Assembly (NCBI GenBank): GCA_039818205.1 | Contig: JBCBUK010000008.1 | Coordinates: 32,001 to 96,000, forward strand | DNA from: Verrucomicrobiota bacterium | Lineage (GTDB): Bacteria; Verrucomicrobiota; Verrucomicrobiia; Opitutales; Cerasicoccaceae | Direction of reading: 5' to 3' | DNA: 64,000 nt | In this document: one piece after another, positions 1,201-30,810 of the stretch | How the letters are laid out: each line of letters begins with the position of its first letter | Numbering within the stretch: the stretch's first letter is position 1 | Notes under the pieces: generated by a model | Database searches by the model: none | What the model saw: only the letters and a program-made list of their open reading frames with translations | Told to the model about the DNA's origin: nothing | Program-made: the position numbers and the translations under genes

Positions 1201-2526
1201 CTAAGGTTGGGAAACAACGACCTGGGTCGTTTTATTTAGGGCAACGCCAAAGACCGTATTGCCGGTCATGTTGCTTTTTGTGTTTGCGGTCGCGTAGGAG
1301 GTCGGCGTGGTGCTTGTATCACCCCAGAACGCCACGATTTTACCGTTAGGATGGGTGTTGTTGTGGTTGAAGCGGTTGTCTTTCACATGCGCATTTTCTG
1401 CAGCCCCTCCGGAGATCGCTACAACCATGTTGTCGTTTACGCCCAACGCATCACCGTCGAAGAGGTTGTCGGTGATGTAGATCCATTTGCAGTCATCGTT
1501 GCCATCATTGGCAAAGAATCCGGCAAGGAGAATGCCCATGTAGCCACCCATCTCCGCAATCGTGTTTTGGTTGACGACCATCGAGACACAGCGATTTTCA
1601 AGATGGACCGCCGCCGGAAAGCGTGAATCATCGGCTTGAGCTTGTGCCCAATGTCCGCCACGTAGGTCATTGTTTTCGATCAAGATTTTCTTAGTCCGCG
1701 AAAAGTCGAAGCTATAAAAAACCATTTGATCAAAAGTGCTATTCCCTAACCATCCGTAGTTTTTCCAGTCATTCACTGGACGGCTATTGGTGATTGGGTT
1801 TGTGCCGGTGCCAAAATCTATTGAATAGTTCAAGCCGTCTTCACCGTAGTCGACTGCGATGCCTTTGCGCATGTAAGACTCCGAGGTCCTTTTGAAGCGG
1901 CAGTTGTTGATCACGAAATATCCACCGTATGATGAGCTAGTATAAAGGGGTGCAGAACCATGACCAGATCCCATATACAAACCGGCCCAGCCCATGTTCT
2001 TAAACGTGCAACCATCAACGTACAGGTTCGGGAGAGACTTGCCTTCGGTGCAGTAGATGGCGCTTAAGCTTCCGTCACGTCCAGGTAGCCCAGTGCTCGG
2101 GACGATCGGCCGTTCATAGCCTTTGTCGATCGCAACATTAACGAGAGCGAGCCCCGACACGCCATCAGCGTGCACACCTTGCTTCGCCAGCTTGTTGCAA
2201 ATCATGGTTAGACCTTCAAAACGAACACCGTTCGCGGTGACGAAAAACATGGACGCAGTCGATGAACCAGTGCGGCGAATTCGAGTAACGCCCAGGCCAT
2301 CACCAATAATTTCGACGTCTTTGTTGATGACGAAACGACCATTATCGGTGTCGTAGGTGTGGTTGCCGTGGATACGGATAGTATCGAAGTTATTCAACAC
2401 TGAGAGGATGTTGTTCATCCGGGTGTCGAAGTCGTGGCCGGGCCATATGTCGTGGGTTGCGGCTCGCATGGGAAGGGCCAGTAGGCACGCGATTAGGGTA
2501 AGGGGTAGTGCACGAGTAATCTTCAT
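1201..2526 (-). CDS. secreted right-handed parallel beta-helix (pectin lyase-like) protein
   Basis: Signal peptide MKITRALPLTLIACLLALPMRA, and Asn/Gly-rich beta-helix repeats (INKDVEIIGDG, GVRFEGLTM, INNCRF, IENNDL, ITDNLF, VKDNRF). Confidence 0.75.
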   Translation of the reverse strand: MKITRALPLTLIACLLALPMRAATHDIWPGHDFDTRMNNILSVLNNFDTIRIHGNHTYDTDNGRFVINKDVEIIGDGLGVTRIRRTGSSTASMFFVTANGVRFEGLTMICNKLAKQGVHADGVSGLALVNVAIDKGYERPIVPSTGLPGRDGSLSAIYCTEGKSLPNLYVDGCTFKNMGWAGLYMGSGHGSAPLYTSSSYGGYFVINNCRFKRTSESYMRKGIAVDYGEDGLNYSIDFGTGTNPITNSRPVNDWKNYGWLGNSTFDQMVFYSFDFSRTKKILIENNDLRGGHWAQAQADDSRFPAAVHLENRCVSMVVNQNTIAEMGGYMGILLAGFFANDGNDDCKWIYITDNLFDGDALGVNDNMVVAISGGAAENAHVKDNRFNHNNTHPNGKIVAFWGDTSTTPTSYATANTKSNMTGNTVFGVALNKTTQVVVSQP

Positions 2527-6049: not shown

Positions 6050-7519
6050 ATGCTACTACGATCCACCAGTCTTTTATGGACCCTGCTCTTAAGTATTGTG
6101 TGCGCTGATGCAGCTCCGTTTTCGGTAAAAAGCACCGCGGAGATCCGGGCCGACGCCATGGCAGATTGGGCCGATATCTCGGTATTGCATAACGATCCCG
6201 TCAACTCGGGCACGACGGTCGCAACGGGCACGGATTTCCCATCCGTTCAAGTGACTGGCTTAAACCCAGGTTCGCTCAGTATTTCCAATGATGGTAGTCT
6301 AGCGATTCCGGGCCCACTGCTTGCAGCGGCGTCTGGAAGCTTTCTGCAACTGGATCTCCTTTCGGTGCCTGCGCAAGGATTGGCGACCACGGCAGTTGCT
6401 TTCGATTTCCCGGCGAGCTTCGTTTTCCGTTTTGAACTCGCTTCCGGGGCATTTATTGAACGCACGATTTCGGCCGAAACAGAAGTCGCTGTTTTTTGCG
6501 GTCTGATTGCGCCGGCTGACGGCGTTGTTGGGGTAAACATCAATTGCCAGGATGGCTCGGGTGACCCCTTGGGCTTCGCAATCGACAACCTGCTCCTACA
6601 GATGGAGCTGATCGATCCGCTGGTTCCCGATAGCGTCGCCCTCGTGGAGATTGCACCAGTCGATACCTATTTGCACCGCGGGTTGGATATACGGAGTCGG
6701 ACTCCCGGCACGGAAACCGCAGTTGAGGATCACGACAACGCTTACGATTTGCTGGAGCTTTTTCCCACGCTGAAGGCCGGTGACATCCTCATGATGGAGC
6801 GGCAAGGTGTCTCGCTGATTAATGGCCGGGTCAACCAATTGCTCGGGGTCATGATGGAAACCGAGGTGCTGCTCGGTAGTGAGGAGTTTCAACGCCTGCC
6901 AGGCGCCCTGCCCGCTGGAACGGGTTTTTACTCCTCGAGTGTCGAAAACCAGTCGTTGGGATTCGCGACTCCCACCAACATTCGGCAGGACTTTCTGATC
7001 ACCAGCCAATCGTCGCTTCTAGTGCCGGTTGGTGCCCGTTACGTTTTCTTTTCCAAAGCGACTCCTGATCCGGGTGGCGCGCCATTGTCGGTTCGGATCA
7101 GCCATATCCCCTTTGATTCGTTACAGGCCTGGCTGGACCAGTTTGGCCTTGTTGGTGCAAATGCGGAACTTGATAGCGATCTGGATGGCGATGGCCTTCG
7201 GTTACTGGAGGAATTTGCCTTCAACCACGATCCGACGCAGGCAGATCGCGCCGCGAAGAGTTTTGCATTTGCTCCAAATGGATTCTTGAGCGGCGACCGG
7301 CTACGCCTTGCTTTCGGAGCGCGTACCGATGTTCCGCTACGCTTCTTTGCCGAGTTTTCTGACGATTTGCAGGACTGGGACCGAGGCGCAGAGATCAATG
7401 TCCTCCTATTAGACGATTCCGGGTTGGGGCGAGCCGTATTTGCCGTCGATGACCCCAATCCTGGCCCTTCCCGCTTCGGTCGTATCATCGTTGAAGACGC
7501 TTCCAGTGAAAGCCTTTAA
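6050..7519 (+). CDS. secreted multidomain protein with a Verrucomicrobia-type C-terminal domain
   Basis: Signal peptide, two beta-rich domains, and a C-terminus DSDLDGDGLRLLEEFAFNHDP...AEFSDDLQDW...RFGRIIVE. Confidence 0.65.
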   Translation: MLLRSTSLLWTLLLSIVCADAAPFSVKSTAEIRADAMADWADISVLHNDPVNSGTTVATGTDFPSVQVTGLNPGSLSISNDGSLAIPGPLLAAASGSFLQLDLLSVPAQGLATTAVAFDFPASFVFRFELASGAFIERTISAETEVAVFCGLIAPADGVVGVNINCQDGSGDPLGFAIDNLLLQMELIDPLVPDSVALVEIAPVDTYLHRGLDIRSRTPGTETAVEDHDNAYDLLELFPTLKAGDILMMERQGVSLINGRVNQLLGVMMETEVLLGSEEFQRLPGALPAGTGFYSSSVENQSLGFATPTNIRQDFLITSQSSLLVPVGARYVFFSKATPDPGGAPLSVRISHIPFDSLQAWLDQFGLVGANAELDSDLDGDGLRLLEEFAFNHDPTQADRAAKSFAFAPNGFLSGDRLRLAFGARTDVPLRFFAEFSDDLQDWDRGAEINVLLLDDSGLGRAVFAVDDPNPGPSRFGRIIVEDASSESL

Positions 7520-7534
7520 AATCTACCAAACATC

Positions 7535-8101
7535 ATGAAACTAATCCAACGCTTCACGCTTTTCATCGCCCTGCTCTTGCCGCTGGCGGGCTACACACAA
7601 ACCCAATATTTTCTTTTTTCTAGCCAGACGGATCTTCTTAGCGGAGAGTCCACTTTTGCGCCGCTAGCTGGTGAAAAGCCCGTTGATGTTTTGTCGTTCT
7701 CCTTCGGTGGGTTTAATGCTGTTAGCGTAAATTCTTTCGGTATCGACGTTGACGGTCCACAGTTTCAACCGCTCGAATTTCTAATAGAGACGGATAGCAA
7801 AACCCTTCCCCAGGCATTAAGACTTTTGGCCGACAATACCGTGTTGAACAAAGTAACCCTTGAGGGCTACACGGAGAGTCTTGATGGTTTCGCCCCAATC
7901 CTGAGAATCGAACTGGAGAATGTGGTCGTTGCTTCATTAACCCTTGAGGGTACCGATGGCGACCGAGGTGTATTTACACTGAGCCTAGAATGGGGACAGA
8001 TAACCATGACTACTTGGTCAATTGACTCAACCACGGGCGATTTTACAGCGAATCCGTCGGTTACCTTCGATCGGGTCAAAGGCATTCTAGTAGAAGATTA
8101 G
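7535..8101 (+). CDS. Hcp1-like (T6SS tube/phage tail-tube fold) protein with N-terminal signal peptide
   Basis: Hcp motif order: LSGES, VDVLSFSFG, FQPLEFLIETDSKTLPQAL, LNKVTL, LRIELENVVVASL, LSLEWGQITM, TFD; preceded by MKLIQRFTLFIALLLPLAGYT. Confidence 0.72.
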   Translation: MKLIQRFTLFIALLLPLAGYTQTQYFLFSSQTDLLSGESTFAPLAGEKPVDVLSFSFGGFNAVSVNSFGIDVDGPQFQPLEFLIETDSKTLPQALRLLADNTVLNKVTLEGYTESLDGFAPILRIELENVVVASLTLEGTDGDRGVFTLSLEWGQITMTTWSIDSTTGDFTANPSVTFDRVKGILVED

Positions 8102-8105
8102 TGAG

Positions 8106-10229
8106 CTAGAGCGAACCTGCAGCAGTTTGCTCAGTCGCCTTTCGAATCAAATCTCGCTCTTTTCCCAGTCTAAACTCAACGCCCTCTAAGAGCTCCGGTG
8201 TCTCACTGGACAACGCATAGGAGAGTAGAAAATAGGGTGCGATATTGTTTTTTACCTCAGGGTCGAATGCCATCGTAGCGAGTAAGCGCTGGCCCAGCTC
8301 TTCGCGCCCAGACTGCCGGTAAACAAAGGCTAGAACCGAATACATGTTCGAGTTTTTCGGATACTCAGCAATTAGGTTTTCAGCGTAGTAACGGCAAGAA
8401 GCTAGGTCGTCTTCATAGAGCGCCTTTAGATATACTACAAAGACTTGGTGGTAGGCAGCGTTGAGAAATGTATCGAGCGATATCTGTGGCAGAGAGGCCT
8501 GCAACTCTTTCTCGAGCCCATTGGAGTAGAGATACTCAAGGTATCGGCTAACGACAAGGGGGTTGTTCGACATGCGACGGAAGGATTCCTTATAGAACTC
8601 AAGTAGGCTGGCCTCATCGAGGCTCCGCACCATGAGTGCTTCAATCTCAACCCAGTCGTTTGTCTCGGCAAATTCCAGGGTTTGTTGCAGATACTCGCGA
8701 AATGCCGCGGTATCCCTCTGTTTCTTGGCCAGGAGCACTCGATAAGTTGAGCGATTGATCGGGGAAATCTGGAAGTCTCGTGATTCGGGAGGCAGGTCCA
8801 GTAAGCGGGCAGCTTCGACGAGGTCTGGCTCATCACCAAGGATCAAACGCTGTAGGTGCAGAGTTGAAACGCTGTTGTCGGATGCCAGCAGTTTATCGGT
8901 AACGATCTGGTCGGCGACTTCATAGATCTCGAAGATAAGGAACGACCGAATGCCTGCCTCTCGCTCTTCGGCGTCCTCCCAATCGTAGATAGCCATTACG
9001 CCATCAATGAGCTCTTGGCGATTAATTGCGTCGAATTCAAATGCTCGAAAGTAGGCATAGGCTTTATCATCGGGCTTAGCCTCGGGATGTTCAGCAATGT
9101 GGCGCAGGAACTTGTTGAAATCGAACCGCTCATCGTCAACCAGACGTCCTGGGTAGGCGATCACAAAGCGGCTGATTTCGATGCCGACCTCGTCATCCCG
9201 ATATAGGTGTTCGTCGATGTAATCGATTAGCCGATCCTGGGCTCCGTTAGTTCGATCGAACCAGAGTTGCTCGGCCAAAATGCCATGGATCGTCACGGTA
9301 TCTTTGCCCTCCTTGGCGTGTCGCTTTGCGAGCTGAAAGGCATTGACCAATCGCCCTTGAGCCAACATCAACCGGATTTCCGCATCGACCACGAATTCGT
9401 GTTCCGGATAGCGGTCCTTAAGCATTGAAAGGTAATCATAACCTACTTTGATCTGTCCGTAATCGGCGGCATTTTCAATGATGTTGGTTAGCGACTGCGC
9501 ATCGAAACCATGGATTTTCGCCAATCGCTCGTTCCACCAGATTAACTCCGGATTGCGGTTTTCTTCAGCGAGCTCGACCACGAGCTCAAGCGCTTCACGG
9601 TCATCCGGGCGAAGCAATGCAGCCGTGCGGGCTTTTCCGTAAGCTTTAACCAACTGATCCTGCTCCTTGAGTTCCTTAGCTTCGGCCAAAATCGCTTCGC
9701 TGCGCTCGGCCTTCACGGCCCTCACCCACCACGGAGCGGTTCCGATAACACCAACCCCGCCAACTACGGCGATTACCGATAGAATTCGGACGAAAAGTGG
9801 CAGTTTCAGCCAGACGAAGAATGACCATTCCACCGTGTTGAGCGCCTTGGCAATCATGCCGCGGTAGCTAAACCAGAGGTCGGCAATGGCGTCGCGAATC
9901 GACATGCGGCGCAGCTCATTCAGTTTGCGAAACGTTGCTTTGGTCAGCGTGATTGGAGACAACAAAAGCGAAACGAACCAGGAGCCGACCTGCTCCTTCT
10001 TTCGCGCATTTTGCATCTGAGACATTGCGCGCTTCTCTTCTCGCTCCCGTTGGGCGACCTTCTTGCGAGCCTCCGACGATCCCTGCCATTCGCCAACCTG
10101 CTTGCCGAAATAGCGAAAATAGCCACCCACGTGTCGGAAACGGCGTTTCAGTCCGTGGCGGAAGAAATGGCTGATGTCAGCGAAGAAGTCGCCAACGACT
10201 TTCTTTAGTTTTCGGAAGAAGAAACTCAA
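8106..10229 (-). CDS. large membrane-anchored helical (TPR-like) hypothetical protein
   Basis: Long ORF with a basic N-terminal region, a TM helix (ILSVIAVVGGVGVIGTAPWW) and a helical-repeat C-terminal region. Start placed at TTG 10229 because the 10388 start overlaps purD. Confidence 0.6.
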   Translation of the reverse strand: MSFFFRKLKKVVGDFFADISHFFRHGLKRRFRHVGGYFRYFGKQVGEWQGSSEARKKVAQREREEKRAMSQMQNARKKEQVGSWFVSLLLSPITLTKATFRKLNELRRMSIRDAIADLWFSYRGMIAKALNTVEWSFFVWLKLPLFVRILSVIAVVGGVGVIGTAPWWVRAVKAERSEAILAEAKELKEQDQLVKAYGKARTAALLRPDDREALELVVELAEENRNPELIWWNERLAKIHGFDAQSLTNIIENAADYGQIKVGYDYLSMLKDRYPEHEFVVDAEIRLMLAQGRLVNAFQLAKRHAKEGKDTVTIHGILAEQLWFDRTNGAQDRLIDYIDEHLYRDDEVGIEISRFVIAYPGRLVDDERFDFNKFLRHIAEHPEAKPDDKAYAYFRAFEFDAINRQELIDGVMAIYDWEDAEEREAGIRSFLIFEIYEVADQIVTDKLLASDNSVSTLHLQRLILGDEPDLVEAARLLDLPPESRDFQISPINRSTYRVLLAKKQRDTAAFREYLQQTLEFAETNDWVEIEALMVRSLDEASLLEFYKESFRRMSNNPLVVSRYLEYLYSNGLEKELQASLPQISLDTFLNAAYHQVFVVYLKALYEDDLASCRYYAENLIAEYPKNSNMYSVLAFVYRQSGREELGQRLLATMAFDPEVKNNIAPYFLLSYALSSETPELLEGVEFRLGKERDLIRKATEQTAAGSL

Positions 10230-10349
10230 AACACCACTATTGAAAGGGGGCGATATCGTGCCGGGCAACTGGAAAGTGCCCGGAAAATGCACGGAAATAC
10301 CGCATTCCGGTGTTGCGCGATTGGTTCCGCTCGGTTTTTGTCCGGGTCC

Positions 10350-11627
10350 ATGAAGGTATTGGTTATCGGTTCTGGAGGGCGTGAACATGCGTTGGTCCAG
10401 GCCTGTCTAAAGAGTTCGATCGTAAATTCGGTGGTTGCAGCGCCAGGAAACGGCGGCATGGCCCAGGAAGCTGAATGCCTCCCGGTGGACGTCAATCGCG
10501 TTGAGGAAATCGTTGCCTTGGCCAAAGAGGTCGCCGCCGATCTCGTCATCGTTGGCCCCGAGGCACCGCTCGCGATTGGCGCTAGTGATGCTTTGCGTGG
10601 CGCTGGCTTTGAGGTTTACGGGCCGAATCTGGATGGAGCGCGCCTCGAGGCCAGCAAAACCTTCACCAAAGACTTTCTCCTAAGAAACAATATCCCCACG
10701 GCCAAGGGCGAGCGATTCAAGGACTTTACCCAAGCACTCACGTTTCTGCAATCAGTCGAATACCCAATCGTCATTAAGGCCGACGGATTGGCCGCGGGCA
10801 AAGGCGTATTAATTTGCCCGGATTTCGAAGATGCCGAACGCGTTGCGAAAAACATGCTCGTGAAGAGCCAGTTCGGTGATGCTGGTCATGAGATTCTTGT
10901 CGAAGAATTTATGGACGGCGAGGAAGCCTCGATCATGCTGATGGTCAGCGGCGAAGACTACGTGATGCTCCCGGCTAGCCAGGACCACAAACGAGCTGGC
11001 GAAGGCGATACAGGACTCAATACGGGTGGTATGGGAGCCTACGCTCCAGCCGCCGTTGTTGACGAAGCCGTCGAGGCCAAGGTGCGCCAGGAAATCATCG
11101 AGCCAACCTTGAAAGCGCTCAAAGATGACGGTGTCGACTATCGTGGCACGCTTTATATCGGAATCATGGTTATGCCGGATGGTCAGCCAAAGGTCGTTGA
11201 ATTTAACGTTCGTTTTGGCGACCCCGAGTGTCAGATCCTATTGCCGCTTTTGGAGGACGACCCCGTCAAACTGATGCTGGATTGTGCTCGCGGAGAATTG
11301 AAGCCCGAATTGGTCCGGGTCAAAGATGAATATGCGGCGATCGTTGTGATGGCCGCAGGCGGTTACCCAGGTGCCTATCGCAAGGGCGATGTCATTTCGT
11401 TTCCGGGGGAGATCCCATCCAATGGTGCGATTGTCCACGCAGGGACGAAACAAAACGACGAGGGAGAAATTTTAACGGCCGGTGGTCGTGTCCTCGGTGT
11501 CGTTTCGACGGGCCCTACACTGCAGGCGGCTTGCGACGACGCCTACGCCCTGGTGGATCAGGTTTCCTGGAAAGACGCGTATTTTCGACGAGATATTGCC
11601 TGGCGCCAGTTGAAGCGCGACAGCTAG
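10350..11627 (+). CDS. purD: phosphoribosylamine--glycine ligase
   Basis: MKVLVIGSGGREHAL, KADGLAAGKGV, QDHKR, NTGGMGAY, EFNVRFGDPE. Confidence 0.97.
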   Translation: MKVLVIGSGGREHALVQACLKSSIVNSVVAAPGNGGMAQEAECLPVDVNRVEEIVALAKEVAADLVIVGPEAPLAIGASDALRGAGFEVYGPNLDGARLEASKTFTKDFLLRNNIPTAKGERFKDFTQALTFLQSVEYPIVIKADGLAAGKGVLICPDFEDAERVAKNMLVKSQFGDAGHEILVEEFMDGEEASIMLMVSGEDYVMLPASQDHKRAGEGDTGLNTGGMGAYAPAAVVDEAVEAKVRQEIIEPTLKALKDDGVDYRGTLYIGIMVMPDGQPKVVEFNVRFGDPECQILLPLLEDDPVKLMLDCARGELKPELVRVKDEYAAIVVMAAGGYPGAYRKGDVISFPGEIPSNGAIVHAGTKQNDEGEILTAGGRVLGVVSTGPTLQAACDDAYALVDQVSWKDAYFRRDIAWRQLKRDS

Positions 11628-12694: not shown

Positions 12695-13807
12695 GTGTTC
12701 TTCAGGAAAAAGAGTAAAAGCCAACACCCGGAGATTCTTGGGTTTGATCAGCGGGTCGAACAATTTTGGTTGTGGTACGCCGAGAACGCAGGTCGGTTCT
12801 ACGATGTAATCGAGGATGGGCGTTGCGAAGATCTCACCGACGAAGTTGCGAACCAAGTCCAAGAGTTGCTGCCGGGAATGGCGTGGGTATTTGGTCCCGG
12901 CTCCGAGGAGAAAGGTGGCCATTCGTTTACCTTGAGCCCCGAAGGGAACGCTCATAAACGTTTATTGACGGAGTATTGGGTTCAACAGGCCCCGGATCTT
13001 GAGCATTGGACTTTTTATTCGAGTCGACAACCTTCGGTGAGTTTCTCTGGTTCCTGGGCCATTCAGATTCATGAGAAAGAGATCGTCGCTAGCGAAATTT
13101 GGGTTTCGTTGTCGCCTCGTCAAAGTGATCAGCATGTTGATCTCGTGGCTTGGCACCCAGCATTTGCTGAGCTGCCCGAAGGCGCCGCCTACCAGATCTT
13201 GTTTATCATGTTGGACGAAGTCCTTGGAGAAGATGGCGTTGAGAAGCAGTTGGGATCGATAGATATCGGGAATGACAAACTCGCGGAGGCGATCCCGCTG
13301 AACGAACTCCGGTCCGAACTGGAAGAACTTTCAAAAAACTGGGAGAAGCCTGCTGACGGCCGGTTATGGTCATCCTATCAATTGCCTGAACCCGATGACT
13401 CGTTCCCTCGATCCGATACGATCGCCGGCAGCTCATGCCACATGCGCCTAATTAACGAGTTCCTCAATTCAGAGGGCCAAACCTCTGAAGATCCAATCGG
13501 GAAACTCGGGGCAACATTCGCATTTATATCGTTCCCCAGTAGTCACTTGCCAAATGGTGAACAGGTCATTATTCGCGGACAAATGGAAGACAAAATCATT
13601 GAGAGTTTCGAGGCAAGCGGCCAGGCCCTTCATCTGGGCGGTGCGATTGGACGGTCTCGGACCTATATTGATTTGCTGCTATTCGATCGTGGTCGTGAAA
13701 GCCTTTCGCAGATTCGCGAGATCATGAAACCTTATCAGTTGCCCAAAGACAGCGCGGTTTATCCATTTTTCGGCAATACCGGGAAGGCGATTTTTGATTT
13801 AGCCTAG
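12695..13807 (+). CDS. hypothetical protein (possibly DUF695-related)
   Basis: 370-aa ORF filling the rpiB-glyA gap; FWLWY, TLSPEG, LDEVLGE and YIDLLLFD segments; family call tentative. Confidence 0.6.
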   Translation: MFFRKKSKSQHPEILGFDQRVEQFWLWYAENAGRFYDVIEDGRCEDLTDEVANQVQELLPGMAWVFGPGSEEKGGHSFTLSPEGNAHKRLLTEYWVQQAPDLEHWTFYSSRQPSVSFSGSWAIQIHEKEIVASEIWVSLSPRQSDQHVDLVAWHPAFAELPEGAAYQILFIMLDEVLGEDGVEKQLGSIDIGNDKLAEAIPLNELRSELEELSKNWEKPADGRLWSSYQLPEPDDSFPRSDTIAGSSCHMRLINEFLNSEGQTSEDPIGKLGATFAFISFPSSHLPNGEQVIIRGQMEDKIIESFEASGQALHLGGAIGRSRTYIDLLLFDRGRESLSQIREIMKPYQLPKDSAVYPFFGNTGKAIFDLA

Positions 13808-22094: not shown

Positions 22095-24446
22095 TTAGTG
22101 GTTGGTGAACCACCAAAGGAGAGCACAGATAATTATAGTCATCATGATCAACCACTTCCAGAATCGTCGCCTTTTGGTCCGCTTGTCTTCGGTCAGATAA
22201 CTGTAGTGGATTTTCCGGGCGTGCTTGTCGAAGTGCCCCACGTGAGTCAGGTCATGCGCCAGTTTGATATTCAAGCGCATTTGGCCGTTGATGGCCCACC
22301 CGGAGGCCTCGAGAATCATCCCAACGTCCCGGCGTCGGAGTTTGATAAACCCGATGAGCATCGAGGGGCCGATTACAAATAGCAGAACCAGCAAGGCCGT
22401 GTAGACAAAATAGATGTCGGGCAGGCTCCTTACCTGCTGGGCGATGTAAGCAAATGAGGAGGACAAAGCAGCGATTGCCACCCCACCCCCGGCAAGCATA
22501 CCGCCAAGCCCGATGCCCGCGTTGGATTTGCTGGCGGACTGGGACGAGAGGGATTCGGCCGGATTTCCGCTGACGTTCTTATCCAGTTTCGTGAGGCTAC
22601 CGGTAATCTGCTGTTCGAGGGCCTTCTGACGGGAAGAGGTAATCTTTTCGATTTGCCCGGTGATCAGCTCTCCGATGGCTTTGAATGGCGCCCAGGCAGC
22701 CTCGCTTAGGCTAATTGGGTTTACTACGACCTTGGCGACGCGTGCATCCCAGTCGAGTCCCTTGCGGTCGTAGAACACACCGTTTTTCCCGACGGACAAG
22801 CGCCCGGCGCTTCGGCTGGTAACGGCAGCACAGACCGTTATGGGTTTCGGTTTGTCGGAGCGCTTCGCTTCCAGATAAATTAGATAGATCCCGGACTTCT
22901 GTGCGATCGCGGAGTGGGCGTTGAGGTCTAGGACCTCGACACACATCCGGAGGGCGCAGCCGTCGATGATCAGAACTCCAGTTTGGAAAATGCCATCTTT
23001 GCGGGTGTCGTAAAACTCGGATAGGCTGATGGTATTGTTGACCAATCGGAACAAGTCGCGATGGAGGCGTAGGAGTTTCTCGACTTCCTCGATCGCTTTG
23101 ATTTCACCGGCCAATGCGGAGTCGAGCTGGATCAATGCGTGGATGGCTTCCTTTTCGGGTCCTCGTAGAATCGCCGCGATGCGCTCGGCGCCTAGGCTTT
23201 CGACTTCGGCGCCCTTCTTCGAACCAATCCAGGCCTCGTAGGCTTTGAAGAATTCTTTTACCCGGCTCCAGTCGCTTTCAGTAAGGAACTCTTTTTCCTC
23301 TCCGAGAACCGGGCGAAGCACCTGGGTTTCGAAAATCTTCACCGCGCTCAGATACACTGGATTAACGCCTTCTTCGAGCGGGAGATCGACTCCAACTGCC
23401 ACCCGTGCCAAGGGGAGCCCACTCATGACTTCCTGAATGGTTTTCTCATCGCGTTTACCCGCTTCGAGCAAATCACTCTCCCGGAAATTAAAGAAGCTGA
23501 CCGCAGCTGAATCGAAGACCGCTATTTTGCGTTGGACGAAAAACTCATCTATTTTTGACCGGAGCGCATTGAGTGCTCCGAAGGCAGCGGCGGTTTCGAC
23601 GCCCAGGGGAAATATGTCCTTGTTAAGATGAGACACCTTTGGCTCATTAACGACAACTGGACCCGCGCTTTCCACATCCGCTTCAGCTTTGACGTGTTCC
23701 TCAACGGCGTCTTCCAGCGAAATACTGGTATCCTCTTCAACAACTAGCGGTTCATCGACGGCCTGGATCTCTTGATTCTCGGGATAGCCTTCTGACCACC
23801 AGTTCAAGTAATCGTTTGCTGCGGTGTAAAACGCGTTCACTTTGTCGGCCGTTACCCCGGGTTTTCCGCTGAGGTCCGTCTCAGCCCCCATCGCGTTGAT
23901 GATGTCGCGAATCACTGCCTTGGTTTCGTCAGACTCGGCGGCTTCCTCCGGGATAATACCATCGCCATTGCTTTTGACTTTGGCGAAGATCCCCGTCCGA
24001 TCCATGGCATCCGCCAGGGTTATCCGCGAGTCGTTGGGACGCCCGAGGTTTTCGAGAATCCGGAGTGCGGATTGCTTGATGCGTTGTCCGGTCGCGCCGT
24101 TGTCATCGATTTGGTTTAGCTCAAGCCAGTCGCGTCCATCGACTATGCTCTCGTAATCAGCCAGCGCCTCAAAGAGCCAGCTGATGGCTCTCTTTAGCTC
24201 GGGTGGTCGAATCCGTCCATCTTGATCGGAGTCAATGAGACCCAAGGTTTTCTCATCGATGTCTAGCCCGCGAACTGGACAACTAGATGCAACCCAGAGG
24301 GTCTCGTCGAGATGATCGATTAGTCTCAAATCGTCCGCGGAATCAATACACATTTGGTTAAAGCCACCCGCTTTAAAAAAACGAGTCCGAGGAAGTGGTT
24401 TTGAATCCGCATTCGCACCTTTTGCCTGGGTCTTTTTATGCTTCAC
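22095..24446 (-). CDS. conserved hypothetical membrane protein with an N-terminal EF-hand-like motif
   Basis: DSDQDGRIRPPE loop, long helical region, and three C-terminal hydrophobic segments. Confidence 0.7.
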   Translation of the reverse strand: MKHKKTQAKGANADSKPLPRTRFFKAGGFNQMCIDSADDLRLIDHLDETLWVASSCPVRGLDIDEKTLGLIDSDQDGRIRPPELKRAISWLFEALADYESIVDGRDWLELNQIDDNGATGQRIKQSALRILENLGRPNDSRITLADAMDRTGIFAKVKSNGDGIIPEEAAESDETKAVIRDIINAMGAETDLSGKPGVTADKVNAFYTAANDYLNWWSEGYPENQEIQAVDEPLVVEEDTSISLEDAVEEHVKAEADVESAGPVVVNEPKVSHLNKDIFPLGVETAAAFGALNALRSKIDEFFVQRKIAVFDSAAVSFFNFRESDLLEAGKRDEKTIQEVMSGLPLARVAVGVDLPLEEGVNPVYLSAVKIFETQVLRPVLGEEKEFLTESDWSRVKEFFKAYEAWIGSKKGAEVESLGAERIAAILRGPEKEAIHALIQLDSALAGEIKAIEEVEKLLRLHRDLFRLVNNTISLSEFYDTRKDGIFQTGVLIIDGCALRMCVEVLDLNAHSAIAQKSGIYLIYLEAKRSDKPKPITVCAAVTSRSAGRLSVGKNGVFYDRKGLDWDARVAKVVVNPISLSEAAWAPFKAIGELITGQIEKITSSRQKALEQQITGSLTKLDKNVSGNPAESLSSQSASKSNAGIGLGGMLAGGGVAIAALSSSFAYIAQQVRSLPDIYFVYTALLVLLFVIGPSMLIGFIKLRRRDVGMILEASGWAINGQMRLNIKLAHDLTHVGHFDKHARKIHYSYLTEDKRTKRRRFWKWLIMMTIIICALLWWFTNH

Positions 24447-25182: not shown

Positions 25183-28100
25183 ATGTCGCATAGTGATCCA
25201 CAGACCATTCGCCTGCGTGGAGCCAGGCAAAACAATCTCAAAGATATCGATCTCGATCTTCCGCTCGGCAAGCTCATCGTTGTGACGGGGCTAAGCGGTG
25301 CGGGGAAAAGCTCCTTGGTATTTGATACCATTCATGCCGAGGGGCAGAGACGTTACGTCGAAACGTTTTCACCCTACACGCGACAATTTTTGGAGATGTT
25401 GGACCGGCCCAAGGTGGATTCGATCGAGAACATCCGACCGTCAATTGCGATTCGGCAGAGCAATTCGGTAAAGACCTCTCGCTCGACGGTTGGGACGATG
25501 ACCGAGCTGTGCGATTATTTCAAAATTTGGTTCAATCACGTTTGTCAGCTGGTAGACCCGGCAACTGGCGAGATTATCGAAGATGACAATCCTCAAACGA
25601 TTTGGCGTAAGGCTCTTAAGTCACGAAAGGATGAAGATGTCCTAGTGGCGTTCGAGGTCACACGTCCCGGAAAGCTGTCCTGGAAACAGATTTTGGACTC
25701 CTTGTCGGGCCAGGGGTTTACTCGGATCATCGTGGAAGGTGGATTGCAGCGCGTCTCGGAAATTGACACCGAAACTTTGCCCGACAAAGCATCGGTCTTT
25801 GTCGTGGTTGATAAGGTCAAAATGTCCTCTCGTTCGAGAACCCGTTTCATTGATGCTGCGACGACTGCCCTCCACTATGGGCAAGGAAAGCTTCGTGTCT
25901 TTAGCGTCGACGGAAAACAACTGCTAAGCTCCGAACCTTTTTCTGAAGGCCTGCATTCACCAGCTTCAGGTCGAGTATTTGCTCCATCGACGCCGAATCT
26001 GTTTTCATTCAACTCGCCGCTTGGCGCCTGCCCAAAGTGTCGCGGCTTTGGACGGGTAATTGAAATTGATGACCGCCTGGTGATTCCCGATGCATCGCTT
26101 TCCATCAAGGATGGTGCGATAAAGGCCTTCACCGGGAGCGTATATAGTCAGAGCCTGGAGGATTTGAAACGAGCGGCTAAGCGGTTTAGCATTCCAGTTG
26201 ATGTGCCTTGGCGCGAGCTTGGAGAATCGGACCGCGAGTTTGTATTTGAAGGCGAGCCGGACTACGTAGAAAGCGAAGATGAATACCCGTCTGGCTGGTA
26301 CGGCATTCGGCGCTTTTTCCGCTGGCTTGAGAACAATACCTACAAGATGCACGTCCGGGTATTTCTATCGCGCTTTCGTGCCTACACTGAGTGCCCCGAA
26401 TGTCACGGTTCGCGGCTGAAGCCGGATGCTCTCAACTGGCGTTGGCAGGGCCATACCTTACCCGATCTATACCGTTTGCCTATTGGTGAGCTCCATCAAT
26501 TAATTGCTGGCTCAGGCAAGTCGAAGGAATTGGAAGACAAACCCGCTCAGCTTGCGCTTGAAAACATCAAGACACGGCTAAGTTATCTGAACCAAGTTGG
26601 CCTAGAGTATCTGACCTTGAATCGGACTAGCCGGACCTTGTCTGGCGGTGAAGCACAGCGCGTAAATCTCACCTCATGCCTGGGGGCTTCGTTGGTCGAC
26701 ACGCTGTTCATTTTGGACGAGCCGAGTATCGGTTTGCATGCTCGAGACATTGATCGATTGGTTAACATTTTGCGGGGTCTTACGGATCAGGGGAACACCG
26801 TGGTTGTCGTGGAGCATGACGAGTCGGTCATGCGCGCGGCTGACTGGCTGATAGAAGTGGGCCCGGAGCCAGGGAACCGAGGCGGAAATATTGTTTTCTC
26901 GGGTCCAGCACACGACATCGCTGCGGAGCGCGAAAGCATTACCGGGCGCTACCTAACCGGCGATGAGACGATTGCGATTCCTCGAAAGCGGCGGTTGACA
27001 ACGGAGGACTCGGTCGGGTGGCTTACAATCGAAGGTGCTTCCAAGCACAATTTGGATGGCCTCGATGTTCGGATGCCATTGAGCCGCTTAGTCTGTTTGA
27101 CCGGTGTCTCGGGTTCCGGGAAGTCGACGCTCCTGAACAACGTTGTTTATCAGGGAATCTTGTCGACCCGGGGAAAGGCCGTTGAAGAGCCCGCGACAAT
27201 TCTTGCGCTTGAGGGGTACGAAGATATTGGGGAAATTGTGCTCGTTGACCAATCTGCGGTTAGCAAGACGCCTCGCTCGAATCCCGCGCTATTTGCTGAT
27301 GTTTGGGACCCCATACGCAACTTATTCGCAAGCACCGATGAGGCAAAACAGGCGGGCATGACGGCTTCTCATTTTTCGTTCAATGCGGGACAAGGCCGTT
27401 GTGAGCATTGTCAGGGGCTCGGCTACGAAAAGGTTGAGATGCAGTTTTTGTCCGATGTCTATGTGCCCTGCCCGGTTTGTGATGCAAAGCGTTTCAAGCC
27501 GGAGATCTTGGCGATTCAATGGAGTGGAAAGTCCGTTGACGAGGTCTTAGGTATGACCGTGGCTGAGGCTTGCGGTTTTTTCTCGAAACAACGGAAAATC
27601 GTCGGGCCGCTCGAAGCGCTAGATTCGGTTGGTCTTGGGTATTTGCCGCTTGGTCAACCATTGAACACCCTTTCCGGTGGTGAGTCGCAGCGCTTGAAGT
27701 TGGTGAAGTTCCTGAGCGGTTTCGATTCCGCGGAGACGGAACCGGCTTTGCTTCTGCTCGACGAACCCACCACTGGCTTACACCGGGATGATGTGAAACG
27801 CTTGATCGGCGTACTGCAACGCTTGGTCGACATCGGCCACAGCCTGGTGGTGATTGAGCACCAGCTTGATGTGATTCTCTGTGCTGATTGGCTAATTGAA
27901 ATGGGGCCCGGGGCCGGTGTTAAAGGCGGTAAAGTGGTCTTTAGTGGTGCTCCCGAGGCGGCAGCAAAGCGAAAAACAGAAACGGCTCCCTATCTAAAGG
28001 AGGCTTTTCACTTTGCGAAACAAAGCACTCGAAAGAAACGCCAAGCGCCCGCTCTCTTGCCCAAGCTTGAAGCAGCTGAAAAAGTGGTTCCGTTCCGCTC

Positions 28101-30810
28101 TGGAAATAACAACGGTAATTCGGTCATTATATCGGGAGCACGGGAGCACAACTTACGCAATATCGACGTGGAGATTCCTCATGGACAATTCAATGTCGTC
28201 ACGGGGGTATCGGGTTCTGGCAAATCAAGTTTGGCGTTCGACATCGTGTTTGCCGAGGGGCAACGGCGCTTCCTCGAGTCAATGTCTTCCTACGCTCGCC
28301 AATTCGTTGAGCAGTTACCGCGTCCGGATATCGATGATCTGCGCGGCATCCCACCGACGGTTGCCATTGAGCAGCGAGTCACACGTGGGACGCGTAAGTC
28401 AACGGTGGCTACCATCACGGAGGTTGCTCAATACTTGCGGCTACTTTATGCCAAGGTCGGTATCCAACACAGTCCGTCGACCGGAGAACCAGTTTCAGCG
28501 CAGCCGGCTGCCGCGTTGCGCAGGCGCCTGGAGACTGCGATAGACGAGCCCGTAGCCAAGAAGGCGAAGACGCTCTACCTTTGTGCGCCACTCATTCGAG
28601 CCCGCAAGGGCCACCATCAGCCGTTGGCCAACTGGGCCGCGGACCATGGTTATGAGTGGTTGCGGTGTGATGGCAAAATTGTGCCAGTGGCCAGTTTCCA
28701 GAAGCTGGATCGATACCGCGAGCATGATATCGAATTGCCCATTGACCTTGGTAAAGGCAAAGCACGCTTACAGAACGCAACGAGCCGCCTGGACGAAGCA
28801 CTTAAGCTCGGCAAAGGTAGCTGCTTCCTGATGGATCAGACGGGACAGGTTTTGGCATGGTTTTCCACTCGCCGGACAGATCCGATCACGGGCGAGGCCT
28901 TCCCGGATCTTGACCCGAAACACTTTTCATGGAATTCCCCCAAGGGCTGGTGTCCAACTTGTCGTGGGCATGGCATCATTCACGAATGGATGCTGGAGCA
29001 CGAAGACTATGAGGAGATACCGGACGATGCGGAAGGCGGTCAGGAGTGCAGCGACTGCGGCGGCGAGCGTCTCAACCCGATTAGCCGCTCGGTGCATCTG
29101 CCAATCAAGAAAGCGGTTGCACGAACGTGGTTGGGTGATCCGGATCGCAGCTCGATTACGCTCCCAGAACTGCTCGCGTTGCCCCCAGCCGGTGTGCTCG
29201 CCATCATAAATAACATGAAGCTTGATGCGCGCGGAAAGAAGATCGCTGATGAAATCATACCTGAGGTGGTTGAGCGCCTCCGCTTCATGGATCAAGTTGG
29301 TTTGAGTTATTTAACCCTCAATCGAGCAACGGTTACTCTTTCGGGTGGAGAGGCCCAGCGTATCCGTTTGGCAGCGCAGTTGGGCTCGAATTTGGCTGGT
29401 GTGCTTTACGTTCTCGACGAACCAAGTATTGGTCTGCATGCGCGCGACAACGACGAGCTGATTGGCTCACTGCATCAACTGCGGAACCAAGGCAACACCT
29501 TGCTTGTCGTTGAGCACGATGACGAAACCATGCGAGCCGCTGATCACATTATCGACCTTGGGCCTGGGGCTGGCGTCAATGGCGGACAGATCTTGGCCGA
29601 AGGCGATTACCCGACAATTACGCGGGCTGAGAAAAGCCTGACAGGCCAGCTCCTGAAAAACGGCATTCCGCATCCGCTGCGCGGCGAATATCGTCCCCTA
29701 CCCGCTGATTGGAGTCCACGGTCGCGGGCGAAAGATCCAACTTGGTTAGTCCTGCGAGAGCCTCAGTTACGAAACCTGAAAGGCGGGGAACTGCGGTTGC
29801 CACTCAAGCGTTTGATCATGGTTTCAGGCGTATCGGGTGCTGGCAAGAGCACCTTACTTAGGGACCTGTTGCACCCTGCGGTTGACCAGGCGATCAAGCT
29901 CGAACAGCGCAAGCTGACTCCGAAGGACCTCCCGAGTAGTTCACCGCTCGTCGGAAGGACCAAGGTGTTCAAGGAGCTCTATTCTGGAGATGCCTTTCGC
30001 AAGGTTATTGAAGTCGACCAAGCTCCCATCGGCAAAACTCCTCGCTCAACACCGGCAACCTACATTGGCGCTTTTGATATTATCCGGGATGTGTTCGCGT
30101 CGCTTCCCGAAGCGCGCATGCGTGGGCTGACGGCCGGTGCGTTTTCGTTCAATACTAAAGGTGGCCGCTGTGAGACTTGTAAGGGTGCGGGTCGGATAAA
30201 ACTCGAGATGGCGTTCCTTCCGAATAGTTATCAACCATGCGATGAGTGTCACGGTTCACGGTACGGACGCGAGCTTCTAGAACTTCGCTGGAATGAGAAA
30301 AACATCGCGGATGTCTTGCAAATGACCTTCGAAGAGGCTGCCGGATTTTTTGAGTTTCACTCGCGTCTAAGTGATTTGATGAAGCTCATGGTGGAAACTG
30401 GTCTGGGCTATCTCACCTTGGGGCAAAGTAGCCCGACGCTTTCAGGTGGCGAAGCACAGCGCTTAAAACTAGTCAGCGAACTGGCATTGGGGCTGCCGAG
30501 CTTCCGGGAAAAATCACGCAACATCCTTCGGCGAAATCTCTACATCCTGGAAGAGCCCACCATTGGGCTACACCTCAGTGATTGCCAGCGCCTCATTGAG
30601 CTGCTTCACCGCTTAGTCGATCAGGAACACACGGTGATTGTGATTGAGCACAATTTGGATCTGATCGCCGAGGCCGACTACGCCGTGGAGATCGGGCCAG
30701 TCGGCGGTGAGGACGGCGGCCAAATTCTTTACCAAGGGCCAGTGGATGGGCTAGCTAAAGCAAAGAAGTGCCCCACAGCACCGTATCTTAAAAAACTCCT
30801 CAAGATTTAG
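25183..30810 (+). CDS. uvrA: excinuclease ABC subunit A, tandem-duplicated (about 1875 aa)
   Basis: Two UvrA units: four Walker A motifs (GLSGAGKS, GVSGSGKS x2, GVSGAGKS), four LSGGE signatures and CxxC zinc fingers. Confidence 0.97.
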   Translation: MSHSDPQTIRLRGARQNNLKDIDLDLPLGKLIVVTGLSGAGKSSLVFDTIHAEGQRRYVETFSPYTRQFLEMLDRPKVDSIENIRPSIAIRQSNSVKTSRSTVGTMTELCDYFKIWFNHVCQLVDPATGEIIEDDNPQTIWRKALKSRKDEDVLVAFEVTRPGKLSWKQILDSLSGQGFTRIIVEGGLQRVSEIDTETLPDKASVFVVVDKVKMSSRSRTRFIDAATTALHYGQGKLRVFSVDGKQLLSSEPFSEGLHSPASGRVFAPSTPNLFSFNSPLGACPKCRGFGRVIEIDDRLVIPDASLSIKDGAIKAFTGSVYSQSLEDLKRAAKRFSIPVDVPWRELGESDREFVFEGEPDYVESEDEYPSGWYGIRRFFRWLENNTYKMHVRVFLSRFRAYTECPECHGSRLKPDALNWRWQGHTLPDLYRLPIGELHQLIAGSGKSKELEDKPAQLALENIKTRLSYLNQVGLEYLTLNRTSRTLSGGEAQRVNLTSCLGASLVDTLFILDEPSIGLHARDIDRLVNILRGLTDQGNTVVVVEHDESVMRAADWLIEVGPEPGNRGGNIVFSGPAHDIAAERESITGRYLTGDETIAIPRKRRLTTEDSVGWLTIEGASKHNLDGLDVRMPLSRLVCLTGVSGSGKSTLLNNVVYQGILSTRGKAVEEPATILALEGYEDIGEIVLVDQSAVSKTPRSNPALFADVWDPIRNLFASTDEAKQAGMTASHFSFNAGQGRCEHCQGLGYEKVEMQFLSDVYVPCPVCDAKRFKPEILAIQWSGKSVDEVLGMTVAEACGFFSKQRKIVGPLEALDSVGLGYLPLGQPLNTLSGGESQRLKLVKFLSGFDSAETEPALLLLDEPTTGLHRDDVKRLIGVLQRLVDIGHSLVVIEHQLDVILCADWLIEMGPGAGVKGGKVVFSGAPEAAAKRKTETAPYLKEAFHFAKQSTRKKRQAPALLPKLEAAEKVVPFRSGNNNGNSVIISGAREHNLRNIDVEIPHGQFNVVTGVSGSGKSSLAFDIVFAEGQRRFLESMSSYARQFVEQLPRPDIDDLRGIPPTVAIEQRVTRGTRKSTVATITEVAQYLRLLYAKVGIQHSPSTGEPVSAQPAAALRRRLETAIDEPVAKKAKTLYLCAPLIRARKGHHQPLANWAADHGYEWLRCDGKIVPVASFQKLDRYREHDIELPIDLGKGKARLQNATSRLDEALKLGKGSCFLMDQTGQVLAWFSTRRTDPITGEAFPDLDPKHFSWNSPKGWCPTCRGHGIIHEWMLEHEDYEEIPDDAEGGQECSDCGGERLNPISRSVHLPIKKAVARTWLGDPDRSSITLPELLALPPAGVLAIINNMKLDARGKKIADEIIPEVVERLRFMDQVGLSYLTLNRATVTLSGGEAQRIRLAAQLGSNLAGVLYVLDEPSIGLHARDNDELIGSLHQLRNQGNTLLVVEHDDETMRAADHIIDLGPGAGVNGGQILAEGDYPTITRAEKSLTGQLLKNGIPHPLRGEYRPLPADWSPRSRAKDPTWLVLREPQLRNLKGGELRLPLKRLIMVSGVSGAGKSTLLRDLLHPAVDQAIKLEQRKLTPKDLPSSSPLVGRTKVFKELYSGDAFRKVIEVDQAPIGKTPRSTPATYIGAFDIIRDVFASLPEARMRGLTAGAFSFNTKGGRCETCKGAGRIKLEMAFLPNSYQPCDECHGSRYGRELLELRWNEKNIADVLQMTFEEAAGFFEFHSRLSDLMKLMVETGLGYLTLGQSSPTLSGGEAQRLKLVSELALGLPSFREKSRNILRRNLYILEEPTIGLHLSDCQRLIELLHRLVDQEHTVIVIEHNLDLIAEADYAVEIGPVGGEDGGQILYQGPVDGLAKAKKCPTAPYLKKLLKI

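Follow-up and report, generated by a model that had tools for sequence, protein, structure and literature searches.

A predicted Sec-exported Hcp and its secreted partner, encoded outside any type VI secretion system in a Verrucomicrobiota genome

Introduction

Hcp is regarded as a hallmark of type VI secretion systems (T6SS), and an hcp gene, or Hcp in the supernatant, is commonly taken as a sign of such a system. A 64,000-nucleotide stretch of a Verrucomicrobiota genome (hereafter the window) contains a gene that calls this rule into question. From the sequence, its product was predicted to be an Hcp that begins with a typical signal peptide. Is this protein a genuine Hcp, is it exported, does the genome encode a T6SS that could use it, and what might it do together with the secreted protein encoded just upstream? 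Here, we describe the fold, leader, gene neighborhood and relatives of this protein, and weigh the roles that it might have.

Results

An Hcp fold preceded by a leader

The 188-aa protein is Hcp proper. All of the Hcp1 motifs on which the original prediction was based are present in the order given, and a Pfam search matched PF05638 to residues 36-159 with 33.8 bits (cut-off 23.5, E 4.8e-8). No family match was obtained in NCBIfam or PHROGs. The AF2 model, built on a 39-row alignment (pLDDT 93.4, pTM 0.84), displays the Hcp beta-barrel with one helix, and it aligns with T6SS Hcps such as EvpC (3eaa; Table 1). Tube proteins of phages, eCIS and tailocins reach Z 8-11.7 against the same model. 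Identity to the ten best-scoring solved Hcps is only 15-20%, and the best E value in a PDB sequence search was just 0.76. The fold ends at residue 186 of 188, and no C-terminal extension of over 60 aa, as in Hcp-ET, follows it. Pfam found no PEP-CTERM tail (PF07589) on the Hcp or on its 489-aa partner, and both genes have ordinary GC content. A four-copy complex prediction of the mature Hcp scored 0.37 against a mark of 0.42, which is evidence neither way.

The signal peptide was called with a sequence heuristic together with conservation in the 23-member clade described below. In the leader, two basic residues accompany a hydrophobic core, whose best 10-residue mean is 2.83, and GYT stands just ahead of Gln22, where the fold begins. 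A small residue followed by Gln stands after the hydrophobic core in 22 of the 23 clade members, and the leader with its Gln is kept across the 23 proteins at about 30% identity. Within the first 60 codons the only start codons are ATG1, TTG15, which lies within the core, and TTG53, which lies past the first strand, so there is no start between leader and fold. The original prediction named three outcomes that would count against it: no Hcp fold, no predicted signal peptide, or translation beginning after the hydrophobic segment with a complete T6SS elsewhere in the genome. None of these was seen: the fold is that of an Hcp, a signal peptide is predicted by the heuristic and by conservation, no start codon occurs between codons 15 and 53, and the genome has no match to the T6SS genes searched for (see below). 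By this heuristic the protein departs from a leaderless cytoplasmic tube subunit, having a 21-residue leader and no internal start before the fold. Both the Hcp and its partner very probably cross the inner membrane via Sec, and the Hcp very probably matures at Gln22. Cyclisation of Gln22 to pyroglutamate is a possibility.

Table 1. Features of the two-gene locus (positions in the window).
Feature	Position	Strand	Details
Partner gene (489 aa), encoding leader, CBM-like jelly roll, conserved beta domain and C-terminal module	6050..7519	+	
Predicted Sec signal peptide of partner, residues 1-21, end A-D-A	6050..6112	+	Sequence reading; homologue leaders
Partner domain 1 (approximately residues 33-187), jelly roll of galactose-binding-like type	6146..6610	+	CBM22/CBM35-like
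Partner domain 2, residues about 195-355, beta-rich, variant marker	6632..7114	+	46-61% identity, 5 homologues
C-terminal module: Asp-rich D-x-D-G-D-G repeat and beta domain	7094..7507	+	Own HMM; Hcp-fused in relatives
Exported Hcp gene	7535-8101	+	188 aa; Pfam PF05638 and AF2 model
Predicted Sec (SPI-type) signal peptide of Hcp, residues 1-21, mature start Gln22	7535..7597	+	Clade conservation; fold alignment starts at 22
Hcp fold, residues 22-186	7598..8092	+	Z 20.4, rmsd 1.7 A, 157 residues vs 3eaa
Strand 2-strand 3 span, residues 54-80, full-length hairpin	7694..7774	+	Position of ring-stacking loop L2,3

The partner and its C-terminal module

The partner belongs to no Pfam, NCBIfam or PHROG family. 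Its homologues have hydrophobic leaders ahead of an invariant P23-F24, and its model, which is of low confidence (mean pLDDT 46), displays three beta-rich domains. In this model, domain 1 (Z up to 10.0, with rmsd 3.2 across 137 residues) resembles a CBM-like jelly roll and is a candidate glycan-binding domain. A degenerate Hcp within the partner was ruled out (hhalign probability 0.5%; domain 2 without Hcp likeness). Foldseek searches with the pLDDT-46 model yielded low-TM matches only; pesticidal toxins with jelly-roll domains were among them and are not considered homologues.

The partner ends in a module of about 130 residues (its last 135) that contains an Asp-rich repeat. An HMM seeded on 13 tails from exported-Hcp loci found this module in 53 ORFs of the host genome. 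It lies within 21 residues of the C-terminus in 44 of these, and is internal or near the start in the other nine. The sole Pfam name on the module is TSP3_bac, in some members. Because its placement is mostly C-terminal, we infer that the module is a candidate sorting or anchoring signal of a Verrucomicrobiota type.

Conservation of the gene pair

The partner and Hcp ORFs were predicted to be a pair separated by 15 nt, and both sets of coordinates and the gap were confirmed; the two genes are on the same strand. Partner homologues are also conserved as neighbors: of 401 genomes of the order, 5 encode domain 2, in each case directly before an exported Hcp (gap 5-29 nt). The domain 2 profile derives from these five sequences and may overlook more distant forms. 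The five pairs represent two families (the other family being that of genome G133) and three different gene settings. The genes downstream of the pair vary between genomes, and the Hcps of partner-type loci share just about 26-34% identity. No conserved assembly gene was seen beside the pair at the loci compared. A search for regulatory sites found no sigma-70-like promoter; nor did a terminator-like site follow the Hcp gene on the same strand. A search for related loci from one alignment returned two genome loci and none in metagenomes.

Some further observations concern individual loci. At positions 7517-7537 of the window, a single TAA and five codons separate the partner from the Hcp, and the two genes share a frame. 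This arrangement does not speak for read-through fusion as a general mechanism, since the four other loci have gaps of 5 or 11, 19, 20 and 29 nt. The Hcp of G133 has a near-identical second fragment on a tiny contig of 307 bp (C69, L088), and an Hcp match with three stops (G424:C53:20464-20889) is probably a broken gene.

Absence of a T6SS

The host genome (4.85 Mb in 66 contigs, 99.97% complete) encodes one Hcp. Searches of the whole genome returned 0 matches for TssB (PF05591) and TssC (PF05943), for which the E. coli control was positive, and for VgrG/GPD (PF05954), PAAR (PF05488), TssF (PF05947) and the contractile sheath of phages, eCIS and tailocins (PF04984), all with positive controls. 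The T4 gp19-type tube PF06841 also had 0 matches in the genome, though no control matched it either. Thus the absence of T6SS genes, first noted in the window, extends to the genome as a whole.

Exported Hcps and T6SS genes are also separated among relatives. Our comparison included 28 Hcp-positive Verrucomicrobiota genomes and two Hcp-negative members of the genus, with N-termini read at the returned loci. TssC was absent from all 14 genomes with only leader-bearing Hcp, while both TssC and GPD were present in all 14 with leaderless Hcp; as the compared genomes are related, we read this contrast as a pattern, not as a statistical test. One exported-only genome (G268) had a GPD-family match, a weak one of 352 aa. 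Genome G118 encodes both kinds of Hcp, about 97 kb apart, and a complete-looking T6SS is seen elsewhere in that genome. Within the genus of the host, whose relatives were assigned to Cerasicoccus by database names, G004 (72% complete) has TssC and VgrG and no Hcp match.

A wider class of exported Hcps

We placed the query among 120 Hcp domains with a quick maximum-likelihood tree, which left out 1 fragment, 49 of the 61 repeats of multi-repeat chains and 6 near-duplicates, and in which 7 class labels were corrected by eye. The query belongs to a clade of 23 rows (SH-aLRT 97) nested in one of 28 rows (96). Every row of both clades has a leader. A profile of the clade matched 38 of the 401 genomes. 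Loci were obtained for 30 of them, comprising 3 canonical T6SS Hcps and 27 exported Hcps. Twenty-four of the 27 exported-Hcp loci adjoin a module-bearing gene; this gene is a second, module-fused Hcp at 19 loci (one recognised by eye only, and several used as HMM seeds) and a 489-aa-type partner at 5. Two of the remaining loci stand alone and one is at a contig end. At the 19 loci with a module-fused Hcp, the free Hcp comes first, and the Hcp after it has its own leader and is joined to the module, often via Ig-like domains. Exported Hcps without a module-bearing neighbor occur in G019, G175, G368 and G381. Beyond the 30 loci, L048 (G043) and L049 (G118) have a leader-bearing Hcp of another subtype behind another kind of module-bearing gene, perhaps recruited independently.

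Searching 1.84 billion representatives returned 58 matches, including PEP-CTERM fusions, and 17 of the matched proteins are 300 aa or longer. Thirteen of these 17 contain tandem Hcp repeats: six have exactly six (P0007, P0011, P0024, P0028, P0030 and P0049) and the other seven contain between two and four, the end repeat being truncated. None of the 17 exceeds six repeats. The six-repeat chains have a period of 169-189 residues, and four of the six also contain Ig-like, cadherin or planctomycete-extracellular domains. These chains are candidate single-chain rings. They provide the best indirect evidence that exported Hcps retain the ring, because six repeats equal the ring number. Four long phmmer matches without an Hcp domain (P0013, P0038, P0057 and P0059) were dropped as chance. 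Relatives that end in PEP-CTERM include P0005 and P0017, and an Atlas cluster of 57 members is 98% PEP-CTERM. Similar Atlas clusters in Bacteroidota, Pseudomonadota and Nitrososphaerota are leads only.

Two large proteins were seen among the loci. One, of 880 aa (L092:2365-5007, G451), has a leader, a 477-aa N-terminal part, Hcp at 478-632 and the C-terminal module. The other is a 1307-aa fusion (L044:1309-5232, G334) of a leader, Hcp, many Ig-like repeats, a region that looks by eye like a beta-helix, and the module. T6SS loci L016, L027 and L029/L035 (G100, G187 and G196) have two to four tandem Hcp paralogues, some with the stacking loop much shortened, to 13-23 residues.

The stacking loop

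In the AF2 model of the query, the span between strands 2 and 3 forms a hairpin (strands 59-66 and 69-77), which we infer from its position to be equivalent to loop L2,3. This loop mediates ring stacking in one T6SS Hcp, according to the accessible part of PMC4650826. Since the span covers the position of L2,3, stacking of the exported Hcp is possible. The span is 27 residues long in the query, equal to the median for T6SS-locus Hcps (27, n=21); the medians are 28 for free exported Hcps (n=67), 23.5 for module-fused subunits (n=20) and 28 for the six-repeat chain set (n=61). Because the six-repeat chains have the same loop length, loop length does not separate a ring from a tube.

Other features of the window

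Downstream of the pair on the opposite strand, an ORF at 8106-10388 (-) encodes a protein of 760 aa that seems, by eye, to have helical repeats and a likely membrane helix, and that has no convincing Pfam or NCBIfam family. A leader-bearing protein of 441 aa at 1201-2526 (-) has the look of a beta-helix by eye and no Pfam or NCBIfam match. ORFs of 783 aa and 370 aa at 22095-24446 (-) and 12695-13807 (+) have no Pfam family. A double-length UvrA of 1875 aa with two UvrA interaction domains is encoded at 25183-30810 (+).

Discussion

This locus encodes a member of the Hcp family outside any T6SS. The idea that a tail-tube fold has been redirected to Sec export independently of a T6SS is supported by the Hcp fold, the clade-wide leader and the lack of T6SS matches in the genome. 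Its proposed link to the upstream secreted gene is supported by gene order, as all five partner homologues directly precede an exported Hcp. The Hcp was described at first as an orphan, which is correct with respect to the T6SS but overlooks its conserved partner and its wide family. It was also put forward as a candidate for an undescribed system. We found no published description of the class. The locus is not a one-off, however, but represents a variant within a class that is widespread. What sets it apart is a non-Hcp partner, lectin-like in its low-confidence model, in the position usually taken by an anchored Hcp subunit.

Comparison with known systems places the protein near Hcp/TssD (PF05638; E. 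tarda EvpC, 3EAA, and P. aeruginosa Hcp1, 1Y12), with which it shares the fold and a stacking-loop span of equal length. Unlike these, it has a Sec-type leader, a conserved secreted partner, an identity of only 15-20%, and a genome without sheath, baseplate or spike matches. The tubes of eCIS/PVC, R-type tailocins and phages share the superfamily fold and also act outside the cell. Their assembly takes place in the cytoplasm, together with that of a sheath and baseplate, and they exit by lysis. The query is much nearer to T6SS Hcp than to these tubes, and the gene for a contractile sheath is absent from its genome. Specialised Hcp effectors (Hcp-ET) likewise join or pair Hcp with an extra module, but in the accessible portion of PMC8262886 they are cytoplasmic T6SS substrates with toxin domains, whereas the query Hcp is unextended and its relatives have Ig-like stalks or sorting modules in genomes that lack a T6SS. 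The PEP-CTERM-tailed Hcps are similar to the query in that an exported Hcp is linked to a predicted C-terminal sorting signal. At this locus, in contrast, a separate partner that is not an Hcp carries the putative sorting module, and the module is another domain, of Verrucomicrobiota type. In the same portion of PMC8262886, Hcp genes with PEP-CTERM are dropped from the tree without comment, and the term "signal peptide" does not appear.

The explanation that we prefer, and to which we give an even chance, is that the Sec-exported Hcp forms a non-contractile ring or short stack, that the module of the partner routes or tethers it, and that the jelly roll binds glycan. The locus would then be a two-gene, T6SS-independent envelope or surface module. 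The Hcp would assemble outside the cytoplasm as a hexameric ring, alone or in a short stack. The partner, more tentatively, would contribute the C-terminal module, a mark of dozens of the host genome's secreted proteins, and would route or tether the ring non-covalently, as the fusion of Hcp to the module may do covalently in most relatives. The ring could serve as a multivalent scaffold that presents the glycan-binding-like domain of the partner for adhesion or polysaccharide capture. No Hcp domain is present in the partner, and its connection to the ring is argued from gene order and from analogy.

An alternative that we consider unlikely is a long non-contractile tube or pilus, in which free exported Hcps stack into a hollow filament and the module-bearing protein is the base or tip. 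The loop span is full length in free Hcps and shorter in module-fused subunits, as expected of shaft and end subunits, and the pairing of a free with an anchored gene is reminiscent of major and minor pilin genes. The importance of this loop for ring stacking in a T6SS Hcp (PMC4650826, accessible part) is also in line with a tube. Yet the six-repeat single chains have the same loop length, the genome has no VgrG, PAAR or sheath matches, and no conserved assembly gene accompanies the pair. In its broadest form, this proposal would have exported Hcps build hollow, non-contractile tubes of an undescribed class at the surface, assembled outside the cytoplasm, with free subunits as the shaft, with short-looped module- or PEP-CTERM-fused subunits, six-repeat chains or the lectin-like partner as the base or tip, and with the module as the signal of an uncharacterised sorting pathway; we regard this, too, as doubtful. 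Somewhat less probable still is a periplasmic carrier or chaperone ring, which would hold a client in its lumen, as T6SS Hcp holds effectors, and escort the partner or other secreted proteins without being retained at the surface. Loading of cargo into the lumen is an established second role of Hcp in the accessible text of PMC8262886, no outer-membrane sorting signal was seen on the free subunit, and the pairing is one-to-one. Against this, Hcp is joined in relatives to features typical of surface proteins (Ig stalks, PEP-CTERM and RTX repeats), and a three-domain partner of 50 kDa would seem large for a 40-A lumen (diameter from the part of PMC4650826 available).

The remaining explanations assign the protein a defensive role or no new role. 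An envelope Hcp ring could act as a decoy that binds incoming T6SS effectors or the tail parts of phages or tailocins. Although the class occurs almost only in genomes without their own T6SS and its sequences diverge fast, the loci examined have no defence context, and the lectin-like partner and Ig stalks would be left unexplained, making a decoy very unlikely. It is harder still to credit a remnant or mis-started cytoplasmic T6SS Hcp. The genus does include a T6SS, as G004 encodes TssC and VgrG, but the lack of a start codon between leader and fold, the conservation of the leader and Gln across 23 divergent proteins, the intact frame and the conserved gene pair all argue against decay.

In our literature search, which covered the main text of mostly open-access papers, we found no description of exported Hcps, six-repeat Hcp chains or the C-terminal module, and no link between the locus and the species name "fimbriatus". 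The accessible parts of PMC1569441, PMC3482391 and 10.1101/2024.11.06.622250 do not describe the class.

These results bear on how Hcp is read in genomes. Half of the Hcp-positive Verrucomicrobiota genomes examined (14 of 28) have only exported Hcp and no sheath gene, and therefore Hcp fails as a sign of a T6SS there. Natural six-repeat chains and naturally exported rings could be useful for work on protein nanotubes. As the genus includes cultured marine strains and the locus consists of two genes, direct testing is possible. The class suggests that a tail-tube ring has been recruited as an envelope or surface scaffold.
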